This document shows positions 20,714 to 28,670 of a stretch of DNA of 32,000 nucleotides, piece by piece. A model generated the notes under the pieces. The model searched no databases. It had not been told where the DNA came from and saw only the letters and a list, made by a program, of their open reading frames with translations. Every line of letters begins with the position of its first letter. Position 1 is the stretch's first letter. This stretch comes from Candidatus Saccharimonadota bacterium (GTDB lineage: Bacteria; Patescibacteriota; Gracilibacteria; UBA4473): positions 210,001 through 242,000 of the forward strand of contig JAUIFI010000001.1 in NCBI GenBank assembly GCA_030429505.1, given 5' to 3'. A program made the translations under genes and the position numbers.

Positions 20714-21694
20714 ATGCGTGTTTTGACCGGTATGCAATCCAGCGGCAATCCTCACATCGGGAATTATTTTGGTATGATCAAACCCGCTTTAGAGTTTCAG
20801 GACAATCCTAAAAACGAATGTTTTTATTTTATTGCCGATTTGCATTCCTTTACTTCCAAACTCGACCCCGAAGCCTTTCATCAAAATCAAAAGAGAACAA
20901 TTCTTGATTGGCTCGCTCTTGGACTTGATCCAGAAAAGTCCGCCTTTTACCAACAGTCGGATATTCGAGCGCATACAGAATTATTTTGGATTTTAATGTG
21001 TGGAACGCCGATGGGACTCCTCGAACGAGCGCATTCCTACAAAGATAAAATTGCGAACAACATAGAACCAAACGGAGGGCTTTTTAGCTATCCAGTCCTT
21101 ATGGCCTGCGATATTTTACTCTACGATGCCGAAGTAATTCCCGTCGGAAAAGATCAAAAACAACACGTAGAAATGACTCGCGATATTGCTCAAAAATTCA
21201 ATCACCACTTTGGAGAAACTTTTACATTGCCAGAAGCACGTATTCTCAAATCTGTCGAAACTGTTCCAGGTCTAGATGGACGAAAAATGTCTAAAAGCTA
21301 TGGTAACACTATTGATATCTTTGAAGAAGAAGTCGCTCTAAAGAAAAAAATCATGTCTATTCCAACAGATTCAGTGCCACTTGGACAACCACTCAATCCT
21401 GATACCTGCCAGGTTTTTGCTTTCCACACCTTATTTGCTAACCCAAACCTAGAAACCTTACGTAACCAATATAAAAATGGCGATATCGGTTTCGGTGATG
21501 CAAAAAAACAACTCTTTACCCTCATTTGGGATTATTTCCAGGAAGCAAGAGAGCGACGAACAAAGCTTCAGAAAGAAACAACTTATATTGAAAAAATTCT
21601 TACAGAAGGGGCCCAAAAAGCAAACTCCATCGCAGAAAAAAAGCTGGGTCTTGTACGATCAAAATTAGGCTTGTCAGCAAAGCATCTCGTGTAA
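20714..21694 (+). CDS. trpS: Tryptophan--tRNA ligase
   Basis: VLTGMQSSGNPHIGNYFG (HIGH motif), GKDQKQHVEMTRDIAQKFN and GRKMSKSYGN (KMSKS). 326 aa, a typical TrpRS size. Confidence 0.95.
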   Translation: MRVLTGMQSSGNPHIGNYFGMIKPALEFQDNPKNECFYFIADLHSFTSKLDPEAFHQNQKRTILDWLALGLDPEKSAFYQQSDIRAHTELFWILMCGTPMGLLERAHSYKDKIANNIEPNGGLFSYPVLMACDILLYDAEVIPVGKDQKQHVEMTRDIAQKFNHHFGETFTLPEARILKSVETVPGLDGRKMSKSYGNTIDIFEEEVALKKKIMSIPTDSVPLGQPLNPDTCQVFAFHTLFANPNLETLRNQYKNGDIGFGDAKKQLFTLIWDYFQEARERRTKLQKETTYIEKILTEGAQKANSIAEKKLGLVRSKLGLSAKHLV

Positions 21695-21709
21695 CTTTTT
21701 GAGAAAGCC

Positions 21710-23398
21710 ATGAAATCCCTCATTATTGAATACCTCAAAAAAAATTGGAACGCAGATCAAGCTGAAAAAATTCAATTTTCTCCTGTTCCCAAGGAACAAG
21801 AAGGAGATTTAGCGCTAAGTTTTTTCGAACTTGCTAAGGAAATCAAAAAAGCGCCCATCCAAATCGCTCAAGAAGTGGAAGGAGTATTACAAAAAAACAA
21901 TACTATTATTGAAAAAACAAATATTTCAGGACCTTATCTCAATCTTTTCTTTCAAAATGATGTTTTTTTTGAACAAGTTCTAGAATCTTCTGTGGATTTT
22001 GTTACTCAAAAAAATAAAACCATTGTTATCGAGTTTTCTGGTCCTAATACAAACAAGCCACTTCATTTAGGTCACATGAGAAATCATGCTTTAGGGATTG
22101 CTATGTCTAATCTTTACGAAGCTTTAGGGGCAAACGTGAAACGAGTCAACATTATTAATGATCGAGGCGTTCACATCTGTAAATCCATGCTCGCTTATCA
22201 AAAATTTGGTAACGGTGATACACCGGAAAAGCAGCAACTCAAGACAGATCATTTTGTCGGACAATATTATGTCCGCTATGAACAAGAGTTTAAAAAAGAT
22301 CCCAACCTCAAAGATGAAATTCAAACCATGCTTGTTGCTTGGGAAGAAGGGGACAAAGATGTACGAGCGATCTGGAAAAAGATGAATGACTGGACACTTT
22401 CCGGACATCAAAAAACCTATGAGCGGCAGGGGATTGCTTTTGAAAAATCTTACTACGAATCCGACTGGTACCGAAAGGGGAGTGAGATCGCACAACAAGG
22501 TTTGAAAAAAGACATTTTTCAAAAACGATCAGACGGAGCTATCACGATAGATCTTATAGATGAAGGCTTAGATGAAAAAGTTGTTCTACGAGCTGATGGT
22601 ACTTCAATTTACCTCACTCAAGATCTAGCCGTCGCTTCTCAGCGAGAAAAAGACTTTCATCCGGATCAGATGATCTATGTAGTAGCCGACGAACAAAATT
22701 ATCACTTTAAGGTTCTTTTTGCCTGCCTCGATAGGTTACAACTCCTCGCACGAGAAAAGCTTTACCATCTTGGCTACGGCTTGGTACATCTTCCAGAAGG
22801 TCGTATGAAATCCCGAGAAGGGACGGTCGTCGACGCGGACAACTTGATGGATGAATTATCTGCACTTGCTCTCGTTGAAATTCAAAGCCGCAATCCAGAC
22901 TTAGAAGAATCTGTCCAAAAGCAAATCGCCGAGCAAATCATGAATGCGGCCTGGAAATTTTACCTACTCTCCACCAGTCCTCGAAAAAGCATTACCTTTG
23001 ATCCGAAAAAATCCATTGCCTTCGAAGGTGCTACTGGACCGTATCTACAATACGCAGGAGTTCGAATTCGGTCGATACTTGCAAAATCCAACATCAATCT
23101 TGGAAAAACAAAACCGAACTCATCAGTACTAGGAGACGCTGAAAAACCACTAGGAGCTAAAATACTTGCTTTTGAAGACACACTCCAGCAAGCACTAGAA
23201 AGTAAAAACCCAACTTATCTCGTGACTTATCTCCTTGAACTCGCTCAACTTTGGTCTAGCTACTATAGCGCAAACTCCATTCTAAAAGCTGATACCGAAG
23301 AACTAAAAATAGCTCGGCTTTATTTTGCACAAAAAATGTATTCAATTTTAGAAAAAGGACTGGGAATTTTAGGCATTGAAATTCCGGAAAAGATGTAG
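21710..23398 (+). CDS. argS: Arginine--tRNA ligase
   Basis: EFSGPNTNKPLHLGHMRN (HIGH-type motif), DGTSIYLTQDLA, an MKSREG region, and a C-terminal DALR-like anticodon-binding domain. 562 aa. Confidence 0.93.
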   Translation: MKSLIIEYLKKNWNADQAEKIQFSPVPKEQEGDLALSFFELAKEIKKAPIQIAQEVEGVLQKNNTIIEKTNISGPYLNLFFQNDVFFEQVLESSVDFVTQKNKTIVIEFSGPNTNKPLHLGHMRNHALGIAMSNLYEALGANVKRVNIINDRGVHICKSMLAYQKFGNGDTPEKQQLKTDHFVGQYYVRYEQEFKKDPNLKDEIQTMLVAWEEGDKDVRAIWKKMNDWTLSGHQKTYERQGIAFEKSYYESDWYRKGSEIAQQGLKKDIFQKRSDGAITIDLIDEGLDEKVVLRADGTSIYLTQDLAVASQREKDFHPDQMIYVVADEQNYHFKVLFACLDRLQLLAREKLYHLGYGLVHLPEGRMKSREGTVVDADNLMDELSALALVEIQSRNPDLEESVQKQIAEQIMNAAWKFYLLSTSPRKSITFDPKKSIAFEGATGPYLQYAGVRIRSILAKSNINLGKTKPNSSVLGDAEKPLGAKILAFEDTLQQALESKNPTYLVTYLLELAQLWSSYYSANSILKADTEELKIARLYFAQKMYSILEKGLGILGIEIPEKM

Positions 23399-23399
23399 T

Positions 23400-25700
23400 C
23401 TAAAGCAAAAACTTCGCCGGTTTCATGCCTTCAATTTGTTGGACAACCTTTAAATCTCCTGTGCGAATCTTTCCAACATATAAATCTTTGATATCTTTGC
23501 CTTGTTCTATAAATCGTTCTATCTCTTGATTCCCACGAAAATATAAAGAATCCTTGGTAAAAACTTGTTTCTGGCTAGTGTCAGTCAATCCACGTTTTAC
23601 TTTGACACAAATTTTCCAGGCTCGATTATCTGAAAAATCATATGTGTCTTTCATGAAGTGAAAAAGCTCACAAAATCCCATCTTTTTTCCTAAATACAAT
23701 GCCACAATAAAATATGCGGGTTTTAGAAATTTATATCCCAAATCAAGTTTAAGCTGATTTTGATTCCAAATAGCCAACCCCTCTTCGGTTTTAAGATACC
23801 CTGCAGTACCCCGTTCAAATATACGAAAAGGTTGTGATTTTCCATTTTCGAAACGAAATATATGTGTTCCTATCTCATGAACCAAAACTGCCTGCAATCG
23901 ATTAGCACGAAATCGAGCACCTTTTTTCAAAAGAATGACATGACGTTTCGTTATCTGAATATCAGAAATTGCATTGCTGAGAAATTTGATTTTCCAATGT
24001 GAGAGTTTGTAGCGTTTTAAAAACTGTTCAATCGCTTTAATCGCAGCGTTCGTATCCAATAAATCACCTTCTTCTGGACGATTATATTCTCTATTTTGTT
24101 TCAAGAATTTCAGAGCTGATCGATATGTATGTTCACTCACATCACCAAAAAGCTGGGCAGAAACAGATCCAAACGCTTTACTCCCAATTGATTGAAGCAA
24201 ATCAAGCTTTATTCCCAGTTCTTCGATTTTTTTCGCAAAAAGAGGGTACATAACATGGTTCACTTCAGGAATTTTTTTAAGCTCCCTTCGTATATGAGTA
24301 AAAGGGGTATCACACATCCGATATAAAAATTGAGGAGAAAATTCAGGATTTTCTAAAAATAGAGCTTTCTGTTCCAAAATATTCTGGGGATTGATAAAAG
24401 ATAAGAGATGAACTTTTTCATCCAATTCACAAACTTTTTCATCAACACTATGCATCATTTTCTCATCAAGTTGTGAAGTCACCACTTCCGGAGCCAAAAA
24501 TTCTACTTTTTTCGCAGGATCAATGTAAAAATCAGTTAAAAATTTGCCAGATAAAATCAAATCACAATCTTTTAAAACTCCTTTTTTAACCGGTATTTTA
24601 AGACGTTTCCCCTGAAGCGTTATATCGAGCATTGCTCCCTGGTAAAATTGAGTGCGAACCAAGTTCGTATCACACATCAAATCAACTTTTGCTTTCAGAA
24701 TATGAGGTTTCTCAGTATGTAATATTACCGACTCCATCATGCCAAGAACTGGTTTAAGTGGCAACGATTCATCGGTAGAAGGTTTGCGTGAAAAAAGCTT
24801 TTTGGCTATATCGACTCCTTCCTCGGAAGTCATAACTTTAAGATCATGAATTTTTTCGAGTCTTTTTTTGAGAGGAGCTTTATTTGCTATCTGGATTTTG
24901 GTACCAGATAAAGCATTAATTTCCAATACTTTTACTCCAGGTTTTGTCACTACAAGATCTATTCCTAGGTACCCAATACCAGAAAAATTCTGCACCTGAG
25001 AAGCTGTAAGTAAAATTTCATCCCAAAAAGGAATTTGAAACCCTTTAATGCGGTGTCCGTTTGGCATTTTTTGAATTCTACTAAAATTTTGAGCTCCGAA
25101 TGTAGTTTGACCGCTACCAATATCAATACCCACACCTATAGCCCCTAACTCCATATTAGCCTTTCCTTCTGAATCATAGGTTGGAATACGTATCATGGCC
25201 ATAACTGGGACCAAATTAAACACAATAACTCGAATATCCGGAAGTCCCACACTACTCAGATGCCGAAAGTCTGGATGTGGTTCTAATCGTTCTTCAAAAA
25301 GAATCGTATCATGAATTCCTGCGGGAGAGTACTTTCCATCCAAAATTTCAATACTATGTCGGTAAAGTCCCTGCACATCAAATTTTTTTCCAGACGGGCT
25401 AACCCAAGAATGTTTTTGTTTTTTTTCGAGTACCAATATACCTTCTCCTCCAGATCCCTGATTAGGTTTAACTGCAAAACAAGGGGGAAGTGTACTAAAA
25501 AAATCAGATGTAAGTTGTCTATGATTAACAACGTGATGATAGAGTTTTGCGACACTTATTCCTCGAGATTCAAGAAAATGCTTAGAGAAAATCTTATCCC
25601 GAGAAAATTTCCTCTGAGATAGGGAGTTATAGCGCATCACATATTGGAGATTGCGAGCGTTGAGTCCCAGTATGTCTTTCGCTTTAGAAAAAGAAAACAT
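23400..25700 (-). CDS. Tri-domain fusion: RimK-related ATP-grasp amino-acid ligase (alpha-L-glutamate-ligase-like) + degenerate retropepsin-like (RimK-associated 'Zn_protease') module + MATCAP/DUF1704 QEGLA-family metallocarboxypeptidase-like domain
   Basis: Residues 1-290: ILGLNARNLQYVMRYN, FAVKPNQGSGGEGILV, GLPDIRVIVFNLVPVMAMIRIPT..SEGKANMELGAIGVGIDIGSG, GYLGIDLVV and VLEINALSGTKIQIAN match my recollection of the TIGR02291/ATPgrasp_ST family. Residues ~318-396: ILKAKVDLMCDTNL...LILSGKFLTDFYIDP resembles the PF05618 pattern (AKIDTGA...LLGR..L....LVDP). Residues ~430-766: HEIGTH (HExxxH, nt 23862-23879) followed by GYLKTEEGLA (QEGLA-like, nt 23772-23789), as in DUF1704/MATCAP. Confidence 0.8.
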   Translation of the reverse strand: MFSFSKAKDILGLNARNLQYVMRYNSLSQRKFSRDKIFSKHFLESRGISVAKLYHHVVNHRQLTSDFFSTLPPCFAVKPNQGSGGEGILVLEKKQKHSWVSPSGKKFDVQGLYRHSIEILDGKYSPAGIHDTILFEERLEPHPDFRHLSSVGLPDIRVIVFNLVPVMAMIRIPTYDSEGKANMELGAIGVGIDIGSGQTTFGAQNFSRIQKMPNGHRIKGFQIPFWDEILLTASQVQNFSGIGYLGIDLVVTKPGVKVLEINALSGTKIQIANKAPLKKRLEKIHDLKVMTSEEGVDIAKKLFSRKPSTDESLPLKPVLGMMESVILHTEKPHILKAKVDLMCDTNLVRTQFYQGAMLDITLQGKRLKIPVKKGVLKDCDLILSGKFLTDFYIDPAKKVEFLAPEVVTSQLDEKMMHSVDEKVCELDEKVHLLSFINPQNILEQKALFLENPEFSPQFLYRMCDTPFTHIRRELKKIPEVNHVMYPLFAKKIEELGIKLDLLQSIGSKAFGSVSAQLFGDVSEHTYRSALKFLKQNREYNRPEEGDLLDTNAAIKAIEQFLKRYKLSHWKIKFLSNAISDIQITKRHVILLKKGARFRANRLQAVLVHEIGTHIFRFENGKSQPFRIFERGTAGYLKTEEGLAIWNQNQLKLDLGYKFLKPAYFIVALYLGKKMGFCELFHFMKDTYDFSDNRAWKICVKVKRGLTDTSQKQVFTKDSLYFRGNQEIERFIEQGKDIKDLYVGKIRTGDLKVVQQIEGMKPAKFLL

Positions 25701-25756
25701 AACGACACGATAGGAAGTAGGAAAATAAAAAAGACATTAATTGGGGATAGAGTTCA

Positions 25757-27244
25757 TTATTCTTGAGCATCTTCTTGAAAAAGGGTTCGAAATTTAACGT
25801 ACTCACTAAGTCGTAACCCCGTAAATTTTCCGAGCCAAATAATTCCTAATATAGGAAGTACTATAATTTCAGGAGCTGACAAAATAGCGCTTTCTAGCCA
25901 TCCCCACGTTACTAAAAAATAACTCACAAAACTCACCAGCATAGTTTCTCCTGTTGAAATAAAAGCATACTTCATACCTCCGCTGGATTGCGCAGATAAG
26001 AATTTTTCTGATAGAGAAGCCATCACCAACATTGGAAAGATCGTCAGTGCCAAATTTGTAGAGACATCTACGTAAACCGCCACCGCTAGTACCAAGAAAA
26101 ACGAAAGTGCTAAAGCACTCAAAAGCAAACTTACCCGAGGAATATAAAGTAACTCTACTTTTTCAAACAAAAGCCGAATCAAATAACTCACCAGCATTAC
26201 TACTAAAAAGACAATCAGACCAAAATAAAACCCGAGCATCAAAAAACTCACCGTCAACATCAAAGGCGCATAAACCCCAAGTGTAAAGATACCTATAAAC
26301 TGACGAAAAAAAGCAATGGTAAAGGCAATAAAAGGTACCGCCAAAAGCAGATAAATAATATTTTGGGAAATACCACTTACCGCAAAATAGGTCATCAATC
26401 TTGAGAGAGGAAGCCATTCCGAAGTAGCAGTGCGTTCGTCAATAATACGATATTCAATAGCTCTTCGCCTTAATTTTTCAACCCCTTCGTCTCGAAAAAG
26501 AGGACTAAGGGCTTCAGAACGGGTCAAAAGTATGAAATGAGGCTTTAAAAGAGAAAAAATAGGTTGAATAAGCTTTGCTGCTTTTAATAAAGAAGTATCC
26601 AAAATCTGTACCCACATCTTTTCCTTTAAATTAAATTTATTTTCCTCAGATAGCTTTTGCCAAAATTGACTAAAGGCTTGAAGCTGAGTTACAGACTCCG
26701 TATAAAAAATAATCATATCAGCATCTTTAAAAGCTTGGATATTTTCTTGTACTTTACGAATCAATTCTTCTTCAGCTGAAAATCCAGTTTTGGTCTCCTC
26801 AGACACGATAGCTTTGAGCAAGATACCATAATGAGCTGCTTGGCTCACCAAAGAGTCCTTCATTTCATTGGAGTCTAGAACTAAAACCCCCTGTTTTTCA
26901 AAAACAACAATGTCTTGAAAAATTTCAGATTGATTTTCTCCTTGCTTAATTTCCAAGAGCACTTTATAGGTACCGGGTTTTTCATACATATGACCGATTT
27001 CTTGTCCCCACTTAGGATGTGTTCCATCCCCCATATCCCATTTGTAAACTGCCTGAGGGTATTCATCGAACAAAGTACTATCGGTTCCTGAAAAAAAAGC
27101 TTTTGATCCCAACTCTACAAATACTTCAGTAGTGATCACCGGAATTATTTTTTCTTCAGACGGCTCAAATACTTCTGAAACTTCTTCAGTTTGAGCATGT
27201 ACTGTACTAATGAGAAGAAATATGGAAAAGAAGTATTTTTTCAT
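25757..27244 (-). CDS. Membrane protein: signal peptide + PKD domain + uncharacterised ectodomain + C-terminal 7TM module of the type normally fused to an inactive transglutaminase (7TM_transglut-like)
   Basis: MKKYFFSIFLLISTVHAQ (start at M7; the TTG at 27262 or ATG at 27253 are alternatives). PKD signature YKWDMGDGTHPKWGQEIGHMYEKPGTYKVLLEI. The C-terminal ~220 aa hold about 7 hydrophobic helices and end in LGKFTGLRLSEYVKFR, which resembles the G.yTGLRL.E..RF terminus of that 7TM family. It lies 56 bp upstream of, and on the same strand as, the ATP-grasp fusion. Confidence 0.75.
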   Translation of the reverse strand: MKKYFFSIFLLISTVHAQTEEVSEVFEPSEEKIIPVITTEVFVELGSKAFFSGTDSTLFDEYPQAVYKWDMGDGTHPKWGQEIGHMYEKPGTYKVLLEIKQGENQSEIFQDIVVFEKQGVLVLDSNEMKDSLVSQAAHYGILLKAIVSEETKTGFSAEEELIRKVQENIQAFKDADMIIFYTESVTQLQAFSQFWQKLSEENKFNLKEKMWVQILDTSLLKAAKLIQPIFSLLKPHFILLTRSEALSPLFRDEGVEKLRRRAIEYRIIDERTATSEWLPLSRLMTYFAVSGISQNIIYLLLAVPFIAFTIAFFRQFIGIFTLGVYAPLMLTVSFLMLGFYFGLIVFLVVMLVSYLIRLLFEKVELLYIPRVSLLLSALALSFFLVLAVAVYVDVSTNLALTIFPMLVMASLSEKFLSAQSSGGMKYAFISTGETMLVSFVSYFLVTWGWLESAILSAPEIIVLPILGIIWLGKFTGLRLSEYVKFRTLFQEDAQE

Positions 27245-27340
27245 ACTCGACATTATGCTCAAAAACCCTCAAGAATCAAGCATTAAAAAAGAAAAAGATA
27301 CTTCCATTGAAAATGCTCCCCAACCACATACAATGCAAAC

Positions 27341-27772
27341 ATGAATGTTGAAATTTTTCGCATTGACTCCACTATTCCACTTCCAAAATATGAGACCAAA
27401 GGGTCCTTTGCCTTTGATTTTCTAGCACGAGAACAAACCATTATTGCTCCAAAGTCTCTGGCATTGATCCCCGGAAACGTTATTATCAAATGTCCCGCTG
27501 ATTTAGCTCTACTGATTTTGCCTCGTTCTTCTATGCCTCGTAAAAAATCACTCGTCTTTCCGCACTCTATCGGACTTATAGATGCTGATTATCATGGAGA
27601 AAAAGATGAAATTATGATTCAAGTATTTAATATCTCAGATGAAAGAGTCACAATCGAAAAAGGCGAACGCATCGCTCAAGGACTTTTTGTCAAAACTCAA
27701 TCAGTAAGCTTCACAGAAACTCACTCACCTGCTGAAATTTCTCGAGGAGGATTTGGCAGTACAGGAAATTAA
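27341..27772 (+). CDS. dut: dUTP diphosphatase (trimeric dUTPase)
   Basis: GSFAFDF, PRSSM, GLIDADYHGE (motif 3), ERIAQ, and the C-terminal RGGFGSTG (motif 5). Confidence 0.9.
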   Translation: MNVEIFRIDSTIPLPKYETKGSFAFDFLAREQTIIAPKSLALIPGNVIIKCPADLALLILPRSSMPRKKSLVFPHSIGLIDADYHGEKDEIMIQVFNISDERVTIEKGERIAQGLFVKTQSVSFTETHSPAEISRGGFGSTGN

Positions 27773-27773
27773 A

Positions 27774-28670
27774 ATGGATCTCAAAAAAATCTTTATCGAC
27801 TTTCTAAACCGGGAAAAACTTCTCGATAAAAAACTACTCCTTTCTATTTCAGGAGGTGTTGATTCACGTGTTTTATTTCACGTAGCTTTAGATTGCGTCA
27901 TTCCCACCAACATAGCAGTTTTTCACCTAAACCATAGAACGAGCACTTCTTCAGACAAAGCTATGAAATTCGTTCAAACACTATGCCAAGAATCAGAAAT
28001 TACTTTCTATGGTTTCGAAATAAAAAAAACACCCACATCTGATCGAGAAAATTTTTGGCGACAAGAGCGAAAGCGTTTAGCTAAAAAAGCACAGGAAGAA
28101 TATAGTGCTGATAGGATTTTAACGGCCCATCATGCTACAGACCTCGTAGAGACGATGCTTTTTCGTCTAGTAAAAGGAGCAGGAGTATCCGGTCTTTCTC
28201 CTTTTGATATATCGACAAAACCTTTCTGGGAAGTTCCCAAATCAGTTATTGAAAACTACGCCAAAGAAAAAAAGTTGGAGTTTGTCTTTGACCAAACCAA
28301 TGAAGACACGATCTTTGAGCGAAATCTTCTCCGACACAAGGTCATTCCACACCTCCGAAAAATCACACCAAATTTAGAAAAGGTTTTTGCTTCGGAATCA
28401 AAAATTTTTTCCGAAACAAACGATTTCCTTCAAGCTGAAGCTAAAAAGATTCAAAAAAATAGAAAATTATCCCTCGAAACCTTTACAAATCTCGCTCCTA
28501 TAATTCAAAAAGAATTTCTCCGTTCACTCTCTCCCAATGCCACTAGCTTCAATGATATAGCTGATTGTCTAAGGTGGTTACTCGGAAGCCCAAAAGGCAA
28601 TTCACAAAAAAAGTTGGGAGATGTAATTTTACAAATACAAAATAACCACATTACTTGGAAAAAGAAGTAG
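27774..28670 (+). CDS. tilS: tRNA(Ile)-lysidine synthase
   Basis: PP-loop LLLSISGGVDSRVLFH, LNHRTS, and AHHATDLVETMLFRLVKGAG. The ATG at 27774 follows the dut stop by 1 nt, so it is preferred over the in-dut TTG at 27753. Confidence 0.85.
   Translation: MDLKKIFIDFLNREKLLDKKLLLSISGGVDSRVLFHVALDCVIPTNIAVFHLNHRTSTSSDKAMKFVQTLCQESEITFYGFEIKKTPTSDRENFWRQERKRLAKKAQEEYSADRILTAHHATDLVETMLFRLVKGAGVSGLSPFDISTKPFWEVPKSVIENYAKEKKLEFVFDQTNEDTIFERNLLRHKVIPHLRKITPNLEKVFASESKIFSETNDFLQAEAKKIQKNRKLSLETFTNLAPIIQKEFLRSLSPNATSFNDIADCLRWLLGSPKGNSQKKLGDVILQIQNNHITWKKK

Follow-up and report, generated by a model that had tools for sequence, protein, structure and literature searches.

In Pseudomonas aeruginosa, the rloABC genes encode a secreted retropepsin (RloA), a protein that bears an inactive transglutaminase domain and seven transmembrane helices (7TM; RloB), and a cytoplasmic ATP-grasp protein (RloC). 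The defects of a triple protease mutant are suppressed by deletion of rloB or rloC, from which it follows that the protease counteracts the product of RloB and RloC (10.1101/2025.03.18.643919; the Pseudomonas study also appeared in mBio 2025). In a second system, the ATP-grasp ligase RimK polyglutamylates the -EE terminus of RpsF, and RimB trims the tail, binds RimK and stimulates it; RimB-RimK hybrids also occur in nature (PMC11957791). In eukaryotes, MATCAP/TMCP enzymes cleave Tyr, Glu and poly-Glu off the C-termini of acidic -EE(Y) tails (PMC10499314). Here we describe a two-gene operon that combines elements of these systems. It lies in a 32,000-nucleotide (nt) stretch of contig JAUIFI010000001.1 of a Candidatus Saccharimonadota bacterium; this whole stretch is referred to as the window, and positions are counted from its first letter.

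The operon (27262-23400, minus strand) encodes a 7TM membrane protein and, downstream of it, a fusion protein in which an ATP-grasp ligase, a degenerate retropepsin-like domain and a MATCAP-type carboxypeptidase follow one another. We see an even chance that it is a version of the rloABC/rimBK-type module found in the Candidate Phyla Radiation (CPR), in which the ligase would extend the Glu-ended tail of the 7TM protein and the MATCAP domain would trim it back. It can be read as a rearranged rloABC-type module because a 7TM_transglut (RloB-like) gene nearly always precedes the fusion gene. The features of the operon are as follows.

25757..27262, minus strand: upstream partner gene, encoding a signal peptide, a PKD domain, an uncharacterised ectodomain and 7TM_transglut (RloB-like); from PF14402 and PKD matches
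25760..25831, minus strand: C-terminal tail of the 7TM protein (GKFTGLRLSEYVKFRTLFQEDAQE), predicted to be cytoplasmic, Glu-ended, the proposed acceptor; from homolog tails and co-variation
25701..25756, minus strand: intergenic spacer of 56 nt that separates the 7TM and fusion genes, which are on the same strand and presumed to be co-transcribed
23400..25700, minus strand: three-domain fusion gene (ATP-grasp, degenerate retropepsin-like, MATCAP-like), 766 amino acids (aa), ATG start
24786..25685, minus strand: ATP-grasp amino-acid ligase domain (aa 6-305), RloC/TIGR02291 type; from Pfam, NCBIfam and Foldseek
24519..24755, minus strand: truncated retropepsin-like beta domain (aa 316-394); from AlphaFold2 (AF2), Foldseek, hhalign and unfused relatives
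23433..24443, minus strand: MATCAP/DUF1704 (QEGLA) gluzincin-type metallocarboxypeptidase domain (aa 420-756); from PF08014, TIGR02421 and Foldseek
23400-23402, minus strand: stop codon TAG of the fusion gene

A preliminary description of this DNA had proposed that the open reading frame (ORF) at 23400..25700 joins an ATP-grasp ligase to a MATCAP/DUF1704 carboxypeptidase, and Pfam and NCBIfam profile matches confirm this. Its placement of the ORF in a reduced genome is supported as well, the origin being CPR. The two-domain architecture that it gave is not borne out, as the degenerate retropepsin-like domain lies between the halves, and neither is the fusion a rarity of this genome: at least 590 relatives were found in GTDB, and both domains are present in 120/120 of the best homologs listed (42-61% identity, ~765-790 aa). 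These 120 come from CPR/Patescibacteria, in many independent assemblies with complete chromosomes among them, and are named 'DUF1704 domain-containing protein', 'tyrosine/phenylalanine carboxypeptidase domain-containing protein' or 'alpha-L-glutamate ligase-like protein/TIGR02421 family'. An identical 766-aa protein is already on record, on a 1.02-Mb contig.

A misassembled join of two genes, which the preliminary description had itself listed as a possible refutation, is ruled out by the continuity of all 120 of these homologs. More broadly, the chance that two genes have been joined through misassembly, a missed stop or a frameshift is vanishingly small. The fusion ORF is continuous in over 100 independent assemblies, complete chromosomes included, with 42-61% identity, conservation runs through the linker and the middle domain, and the AF2 model of the 766-aa protein is confident in all three domains (mean predicted local distance difference test score, pLDDT, of 88 within domains; predicted template-modelling score, pTM, of 0.51). 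We found nothing in favor of such an artefact and reject it for practical purposes. An artefact of genetic code 25 was likewise rejected. The window reads with the standard code, TGA terminating 4/24 long ORFs with ATGA overlaps, and the ORF call is therefore independent of code-25 recoding.

The N-terminal part of the fusion protein matches ATPgrasp_ST (PF14397) at aa 16-285, covering the model almost fully (E=3.8e-56; 190.8 bits, the cutoff being 31.4). The match to TIGR02291 ('alpha-L-glutamate ligase-like') spans aa 6-305 and is highly significant at 230.2 bits, under the equivalog cutoff of 314.2, so that by score the ligase is a diverged TIGR02291 relative and no equivalog. It also misses the cutoff of the RimK family model TIGR00768 (33 bits against 143). 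The domain is 36% identical over its full length to a Legionella RloC-type ligase (E=3e-56). With Foldseek, the ligase half matches RimK (5zct, E=2e-8), ArgX/LysX and the cyanophycin synthetase CphA1, and these closest ligase structures are all of enzymes that extend C-terminal carboxylates of peptides or proteins. In an alignment of 34 sequences, K78, E136/E137, D248, E260 and N262 are invariant; by analogy with ATP-grasp enzymes in general, we take these to be the ATP/Mg-binding residues (a Lys in the beta-strand ahead of the Gly-rich loop, a hinge Glu and the D/E-x-N triad). The ATP-grasp call and the domain border of the preliminary description are thus borne out by PF14397 and TIGR02291, and the loss of ATP-binding residues that it had listed as a possible refutation is not seen in this alignment. 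Three sites in the domain are referred to below.

25467-25469, minus strand: ligase residue K78, family-invariant
24915-24923, minus strand: ligase residues E260 and N262, family-invariant
24909-24911, minus strand: L264 in N-A-L-S-G, replacing the nearly invariant Arg of N-A-R-x-G

A protein 36% identical to the ATP-grasp domain is also encoded on a plasmid of Halobacterium sp. DL1 (CP007061.1:106116-107024, H27), and an RloC-type ligase is thus present on a haloarchaeal replicon.

The C-terminal part matches PF08014 (MATCAP) at aa 453-756 (E=9.4e-41; 140.4 bits, the cutoff being 27) and TIGR02421 (QEGLA) at aa 420-756, the latter highly significant at 166.6 bits and under the equivalog cutoff of 338.65. 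A phmmer comparison with human MATCAP (PDB 7z5g) gives E=7.9e-12 and aligns both conserved motifs residue for residue. Foldseek finds the MATCAP fold (7z5g/7z6s; E=1.4e-13 for 7z5g; template-modelling score, TM, 0.62-0.65 normalised to the target), human MATCAP being the best PDB match of the AF2 model (E about 1e-13). The motifs lie exactly where the preliminary description had placed them.

23862..23879, minus strand: HEIGTH metal-binding/catalytic motif (H608, E609, H613; aa 608-613), aligned to human MATCAP
23772..23789, minus strand: TEEGLA motif (aa 638-643; E639/E640 the presumed third metal ligand), aligned to human MATCAP

Residues H608, E609, E639, E640, G641, A643, K702, R703 and Y720 are invariant among 34 aligned relatives, H613 is kept in at least 90% of them, and the HExxxH motif is kept in every fused and split MATCAP domain examined. 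The catalytic HExxxH and Glu residues, which the preliminary description had reported as retained, are therefore intact: they align with those of human MATCAP and are invariant or nearly so in relatives. An apparent loss of the motif in a Peribacteria-like subgroup was rejected, since inspection shows HExxxH in all of its members. The homolog P0099 reads HEVETL at this position, its second His replaced by Leu; either the metal site of this variant is impaired or the reading stems from a sequencing error. From its sequence, membership in MATCAP is at the level of the domain family and not of tubulin-detyrosinase function; tubulin is not expected in the host. Extra stand-alone and more divergent MATCAP-like ORFs adjoin two of the MATCAP-bearing loci surveyed below (L029:9078-10541 and L036:8310-9428, both on the minus strand).

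The middle domain was resolved by structure prediction and Foldseek, and then by comparison with unfused relatives. Pfam and PDB hidden Markov model (HMM) searches of aa 296-425 gave no match even at E<=10, PF05618 included, and Pfam on 26 family members together with a PDB profile search gave no identity for the domain. AF2 predicts a six-stranded beta fold (pLDDT 95, pTM 0.84), for which 50/50 of the top PDB matches in Foldseek are retropepsins, with a top TM of 0.78 for RloA/RloA2 (9g58/9g59) and the Legionella protein Lpg0085/DUF785 (2pma). In hhalign against an RloA-family profile, the N-terminal half only is aligned (E=8.6e-4, probability 24%), with D340 on the Asp of DTGA; a single-sequence hhalign of the domain is very weak (probability 3%). 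Motifs common to the middle domain and the Legionella RloA-type protein are G-x-x-E, AK-h-D and LxG[KR]..F..IDPxKK.

24681-24683, minus strand: D340 at the catalytic-Asp position, the DTG signature being replaced by D-L-M

Among the 34 relatives, the Asp is found in 28/34, Thr or Ser at +1 in 2/34 and Gly at +2 in 1/34. At the same position, unfused CPR ligases carry a full-length domain with AK[IV]DTGA (47/50) that matches PF05618 ('Zn_protease') at 33-45 bits against a cutoff of 27. The window protein thus most likely consists of a ligase, an inactive leftover of a retropepsin and a MATCAP domain, in that order. With DTG replaced by D-L-M, the middle domain is probably catalytically dead, and it is probably a degenerate RloA/RimB-type derivative rather than a working member of that family.

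The upstream partner protein matches 7TM_transglut (PF14402, E=9.9e-26) and PKD (E=4e-10) in Pfam, weakly matches the NCBIfam 'RloB' model, and in its 7TM region shares 26% identity with the Legionella RloB-type protein (E=1e-22). Its likely true start is the ATG at 27244, as the deposited protein (P0121) has 495 aa. Pfam did not detect a PF14400 transglutaminase-like ectodomain in it. The families PF14397, PF14400 and PF14402 were reportedly defined by Iyer et al. in 2009 (Mol Biosyst). The ectodomain segment at 26393-26920 (aa 115-290), between PKD and 7TM, sits where RloB has its inactive transglutaminase domain, and has only a weak NCBIfam match to LdcB (E=6e-4, aa 109-180). A scan for promoters and terminators gave 13 promoter-like sites against 11.1 expected.

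We infer from the signal peptide, hydropathy, tail charge (4 K/R) and the family description that the ~24-residue tail of the 7TM protein is cytoplasmic, as it should be with the ectodomain outside and seven helices. In a separate set of 7TM homologs (40-60% identity), 118/119 end in Glu, 65 of them in -EE and 46 in -QE, with 1-5 terminal Glu residues; the lone exception is a fragment on a 1.3-kb contig. Among background ORFs, 5.7% end in E and 0.5% in EE. Where the ligase is fused to MATCAP, the tail is nearly always -E or -EE and the residues before it are variable, whereas the tail of the Legionella RloB-type protein, which comes from a system with a secreted retropepsin, is not acidic (..AKARS). 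In many CPR loci among L037-L082 (labelled Moran-, Shapiro-, Levy- or Saccharibacteria) the 7TM partner is only 220-330 aa long, without PKD or ectodomain, and L050, L071 and L072 have a separate upstream ORF whose match to the 7TM HMM is confined to the ectodomain part.

To survey the loci, we scanned GTDB species representatives, where at least 590 relatives were confirmed, and examined the best 80 loci; HMMs built from the three protein parts and from the 7TM neighbors were run on the ORFs of 84 loci. The best 80 are from CPR/Patescibacteria-type metagenome-assembled genomes (MAGs). Several loci (L009, L012, L016, L031, L039, L048 and others) are labelled 'uncultured Gammaproteobacteria' or 'Bdellovibrionales' ('binchicken' MAGs), yet have CPR-type architectures and cluster with CPR, and their NCBI organism labels are probably unreliable. 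A 7TM ORF occurs in ~79/84 loci, nearly always directly upstream of the ATP-grasp ORF and on the same strand; there is no other conserved neighbor, the flanking genes varying between loci. About 35 of the best 80 loci have a single fused ORF. Other CPR lineages have an ATP-grasp protein of 430-500 aa without fused MATCAP, and a separate MATCAP-like gene lies directly downstream of the 7TM/ATP-grasp pair (L033, L036, L077, L084), directly upstream of it (L046, L065), a few kb off, or is absent. Such a pattern of split and fused genes is a standard argument for the three proteins working together.

Two of the loci, L034 and L035 (30-32% identity), look frameshifted under translation table 11, whereas with code 25, in which TGA is Gly, the ORFs for the fusion and the 7TM protein are intact. 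L034 has its 7TM gene not upstream but ~0.9 kb downstream of the fusion gene, and there too the 7TM tail ends in -EE. The locus of P0105 has a second ATP-grasp gene, a stand-alone one for a 331-aa protein of the YheCD/GSH-S/RimK type, directly upstream of the 7TM gene (L001:3318-4313, L002:276-1250), and L042, L048, L064 and L084 have further ATP-grasp-like ORFs behind the ligase. Such loci may be two-ligase systems, for example with an initiator and an elongator.

The presence of MATCAP, the loss of the DTG signature and the terminal residue of the 7TM tail vary together. The 78 distinct loci with a visible 7TM tail are distributed as follows.

MATCAP fused, DTG lost, tail Glu: 29 loci
MATCAP adjacent (downstream), DTG lost, tail Glu: 3 loci
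MATCAP fused, DTG kept, tail not Glu: 2 loci (L029, L030)
MATCAP adjacent, DTG kept, tail not Glu: 3 loci
MATCAP nearby, DTG kept, tail not Glu: 4 loci
MATCAP none, DTG kept, tail not Glu: 34 loci
MATCAP none, DTG kept, tail Glu: 3 loci

Tails end in Glu in 32/32 DTG-less loci versus 3/46 DTG-intact loci (Fisher p=8e-19, kinship ignored). Among MATCAP-containing loci, Glu and non-Glu tails number 32/0 where DTG is lost versus 0/5 where it is kept. The code-25 genomes conform to the pattern. In a crude neighbor-joining tree of the ligase domains, made without bootstrap, the split, DTG-less, Glu-tailed loci L036, L077 and L084 are apart from the large fused clade, and L029 and L030 are placed elsewhere again. 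These separate positions suggest that the combined state arose at least twice and that there were two MATCAP fusions.

On this evidence we propose the following mechanism. The ATP-grasp domain would activate the terminal alpha-carboxylate of the 7TM tail as an acyl-phosphate and then add one or more amino acids to it. By family, and by analogy with RimK acting on RpsF-EE, the added residue is most likely Glu, with TTL-like addition of another residue as the alternative; family membership makes Glu at least as likely as a TTL/Tyr-type addition. The MATCAP domain would remove the added residues singly, back to the genome-encoded Glu, and the dead retropepsin domain could be retained as a tail-binding and/or ligase-stimulating module, as RimB is with RimK. 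In this way, the tail of a membrane protein exposed at the surface would carry a mark that is reversible and ATP-dependent and that would tune the activity of this protein. The broader idea of a CPR 'tail code', in which one enzyme reversibly extends and trims the cytoplasmic Glu tail of a surface-exposed 7TM protein and so switches its activity, as a bacterial antecedent of the tubulin tyrosination/glutamylation cycle, is one that we put forward tentatively, as somewhat short of an even chance. The preliminary description had suggested that the ligase and the peptidase act on one substrate, which gains comparative support from the locus survey and the tail co-variation. It had also listed the C-terminus of the neighboring 7TM protein among the targets to assay, and this is now the best lead, given the Glu-ended homologs and the co-variation with DTG loss and MATCAP.

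Several points weigh against this mechanism. The 7TM tail as substrate rests on co-variation, and the Fisher statistic takes no account of phylogeny, most Glu-tail loci being in one large clade; the ligase tree has no support values. Three DTG-intact loci (L044, L068, L080) have Glu-ended tails, and no 7TM gene lies near the fused locus L004. The topology of the tail comes from a crude hydropathy count, with 5 clear and 2 weaker segments, plus the description in Pfam and the Rlo paper, and the arrangement between domains in the AF2 model is unreliable at a pTM of 0.51. If Glu is what is added, the exopeptidase must somehow stop at the encoded Glu. Finally, Arg is found at position 264 of the ligase in 112/116 matched relatives, and the window has Leu.

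The main rival, carried over from Rlo and RimK, is polymer export: the ATP-grasp domain would make free poly-alpha-glutamate-like peptides, to be exported or displayed by the 7TM protein, while MATCAP limits their length or recycles them in the cytoplasm and the tail is a primer, docking site or pseudo-substrate. RimK does make free poly-Glu besides modifying RpsF, and RimB stimulates it (PMC11957791). In P. aeruginosa, loss of the secreted RloA proteases has a toxic effect that deletion of rloB or rloC abolishes, and the substrate channel of RloA is positively charged, both of which fit an exported acidic product. In addition, the coupling of 7TM gene and ligase persists in many CPR loci without MATCAP and without a Glu tail, so the relationship needs no Glu terminus. 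We nevertheless consider polymer export rather unlikely. A cytoplasmic exopeptidase fused to the synthetase would run a futile cycle on a free product, the peptidase domains here are without the signal peptide that RloA has, and the strict Glu terminus where the exopeptidase replaces the endopeptidase (32/0 versus 0/5) would be left unexplained.

Alternatively, the enzyme could act on another substrate, such as ribosomal protein S6, another Glu-terminated protein, a cofactor or an envelope precursor, with the 7TM protein as an anchor or regulator. The substrates of characterised relatives are RpsF, LysW, cofactors or cyanophycin, Pfam labels the ligase family 'sugar-transfer associated', and the fused locus without an adjacent 7TM gene would be accommodated. 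However, adjacency of the 7TM gene is near-universal, this gene is the only conserved neighbor among flanking genes that differ between loci, and the terminal Glu of the partner, in 118/119 homologs, co-varies strictly, all of which makes a different substrate improbable. The substitution at position 264 raises a further question, whether the ligase is altered or weakened in the window ortholog and the protein is mainly a carboxypeptidase or tail-binding factor with no writer-eraser cycle. The Arg that is lost here is kept not only in nearly all matched relatives but also in the Legionella RloC-type ligase (NAR[PAS]G). Against this, the canonical ATP/Mg-binding residues K78, E136/E137, D248, E260 and N262 are intact, the window domain scores as well against the family HMM (6e-150) as its relatives do, and Leu264 is shared with a few other family members (only ~4/120 have it). 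RimK, too, presumably has no Arg at the matching position. An impaired ligase thus seems very improbable, and the writing and trimming of the 7TM tail remains the reading that we prefer.

It gives a widespread and automatically named CPR family a concrete hypothesis, with a candidate substrate peptide (...FQEDAQE), a writer domain and an eraser domain; if true, the tail code would be the first molecular handle on the function of RloB/RloC-type systems. The loci also present a natural displacement of one peptidase by another, in which an endo-acting retropepsin decays to a relic as an exo-acting MATCAP arrives and the partner C-terminus shifts in step; such co-variation can expose enzyme-substrate pairs from sequence alone. 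That MATCAP is already paired with ATP-grasp C-terminal ligases in bacteria bears on the origin of the tubulin code. The retention of this ~3.8-kb module, with its surface PKD-7TM protein, in minimal CPR genomes suggests a role in envelope or host-contact physiology. In the limited open-access literature searched, we found no paper that describes a bacterial fusion of ATP-grasp and MATCAP, the co-variation of the Glu tail or the dead retropepsin domain.

Around the operon, at 20714-28670, the genes for TilS and a dUTPase are divergent from the 7TM and fusion genes, which are convergent with that for arginyl-tRNA synthetase (ArgRS). The same TilS/dUTPase/7TM/fusion/ArgRS order is found on the complete 1.295-Mb chromosome OZ245819.1 of 'Candidatus Altimarinota' (L003/L017); OY781871.1 is another complete genome with the fusion. 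A gene for tryptophanyl-tRNA synthetase precedes that for ArgRS in the window, and no tRNAs were found in the window.

The preliminary description had stated that in Proteobacteria the ATP-grasp, retropepsin-like and QEGLA proteins are encoded by separate neighboring genes. The first two do share an operon, but its remaining gene is that of the inactive-transglutaminase/7TM protein, and the QEGLA genes examined lie elsewhere. A full operon of the rloABC type is present on plasmid 5 of Legionella adelaidensis (L087:3981-9202), with a PF05618 retropepsin, an inactive transglutaminase-7TM protein and a TIGR02291-type ligase; two genes for C1-family cysteine peptidases follow it on the opposite strand. 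The two proteobacterial QEGLA proteins examined (L085:6116-8107; L086:5430-9201) are 630-660 aa long with MATCAP at the C-terminus. The one from Vibrio has an N-terminal FGase domain (PF05013; N-formylglutamate-amidohydrolase), and the Pararhizobium gene is flanked by a separate FGase gene on one side and an ATP-grasp gene of the glutathione-synthetase type on the other, a different ligase-peptidase module around MATCAP. These 'flavohemoglobin expression-modulating QEGLA motif proteins' (TIGR02421) share the MATCAP/DUF1704 domain with the window protein and, in Pararhizobium, the proximity to an ATP-grasp, but have no 7TM partner.

A sister architecture to that of the window protein is seen in the CPR fusions of ATP-grasp and active retropepsin, of which we found no description in the open-access literature searched. 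They share its ligase clade, the upstream 7TM gene and the position of the retropepsin, and differ in having a full-length PF05618 domain with AK[IV]DTGA, usually no MATCAP, and non-Glu 7TM tails (43/46). With RloABC, the window module shares the ATP-grasp family (PF14397/TIGR02291), a 7TM_transglut gene directly upstream of the ligase and an RloA/PF05618-type retropepsin fold. However, its retropepsin is not secreted but fused behind the ligase, shortened and without DTG, a MATCAP metallocarboxypeptidase is added, the 7TM ectodomain consists of PKD and an unassigned part instead of the inactive transglutaminase, and the 7TM tail is Glu-ended, unlike the Legionella RloB tail. Judged by its sequences, the module is related to Rlo and is no canonical member, the secreted active retropepsin and the PF14400 ectodomain being missing.

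The RimK/RimB system (PMC11957791; PMC4741518) resembles the window protein in its RimK-like fold, its pairing of an ATP-grasp with an antagonistic peptidase and its natural fusions. The preliminary description had drawn attention to the covalent linkage of ligase and peptidase; the natural RimBK hybrids are a precedent for it, and such a fusion is not new in principle (PMC11957791). The window ligase belongs to another ATP-grasp subfamily and is N-terminal, reversing the order. In place of an endo-acting aspartic protease, the active eraser would be an exo-acting metallopeptidase, and instead of ribosomal S6, a membrane protein is the candidate substrate. With the tubulin cycle of TTL/TTLL and MATCAP/TMCP1-2 (KIAA0895L/KIAA0895), the window protein shares a homologous MATCAP domain, in which the HEIGTH and TEEGLA motifs are identical, an ATP-grasp ligase that opposes this domain, and a candidate substrate that, like detyrosinated alpha-tubulin, has an acidic, disordered C-terminal tail of the -EE type. 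Here, though, the ligase is RloC/RimK-like and not of the TTL family, both activities are on one polypeptide, and there is no tubulin. Our best model is that the window system works like RimK/RimB and TTL/MATCAP, while being a canonical member of neither of these, nor of RloABC.

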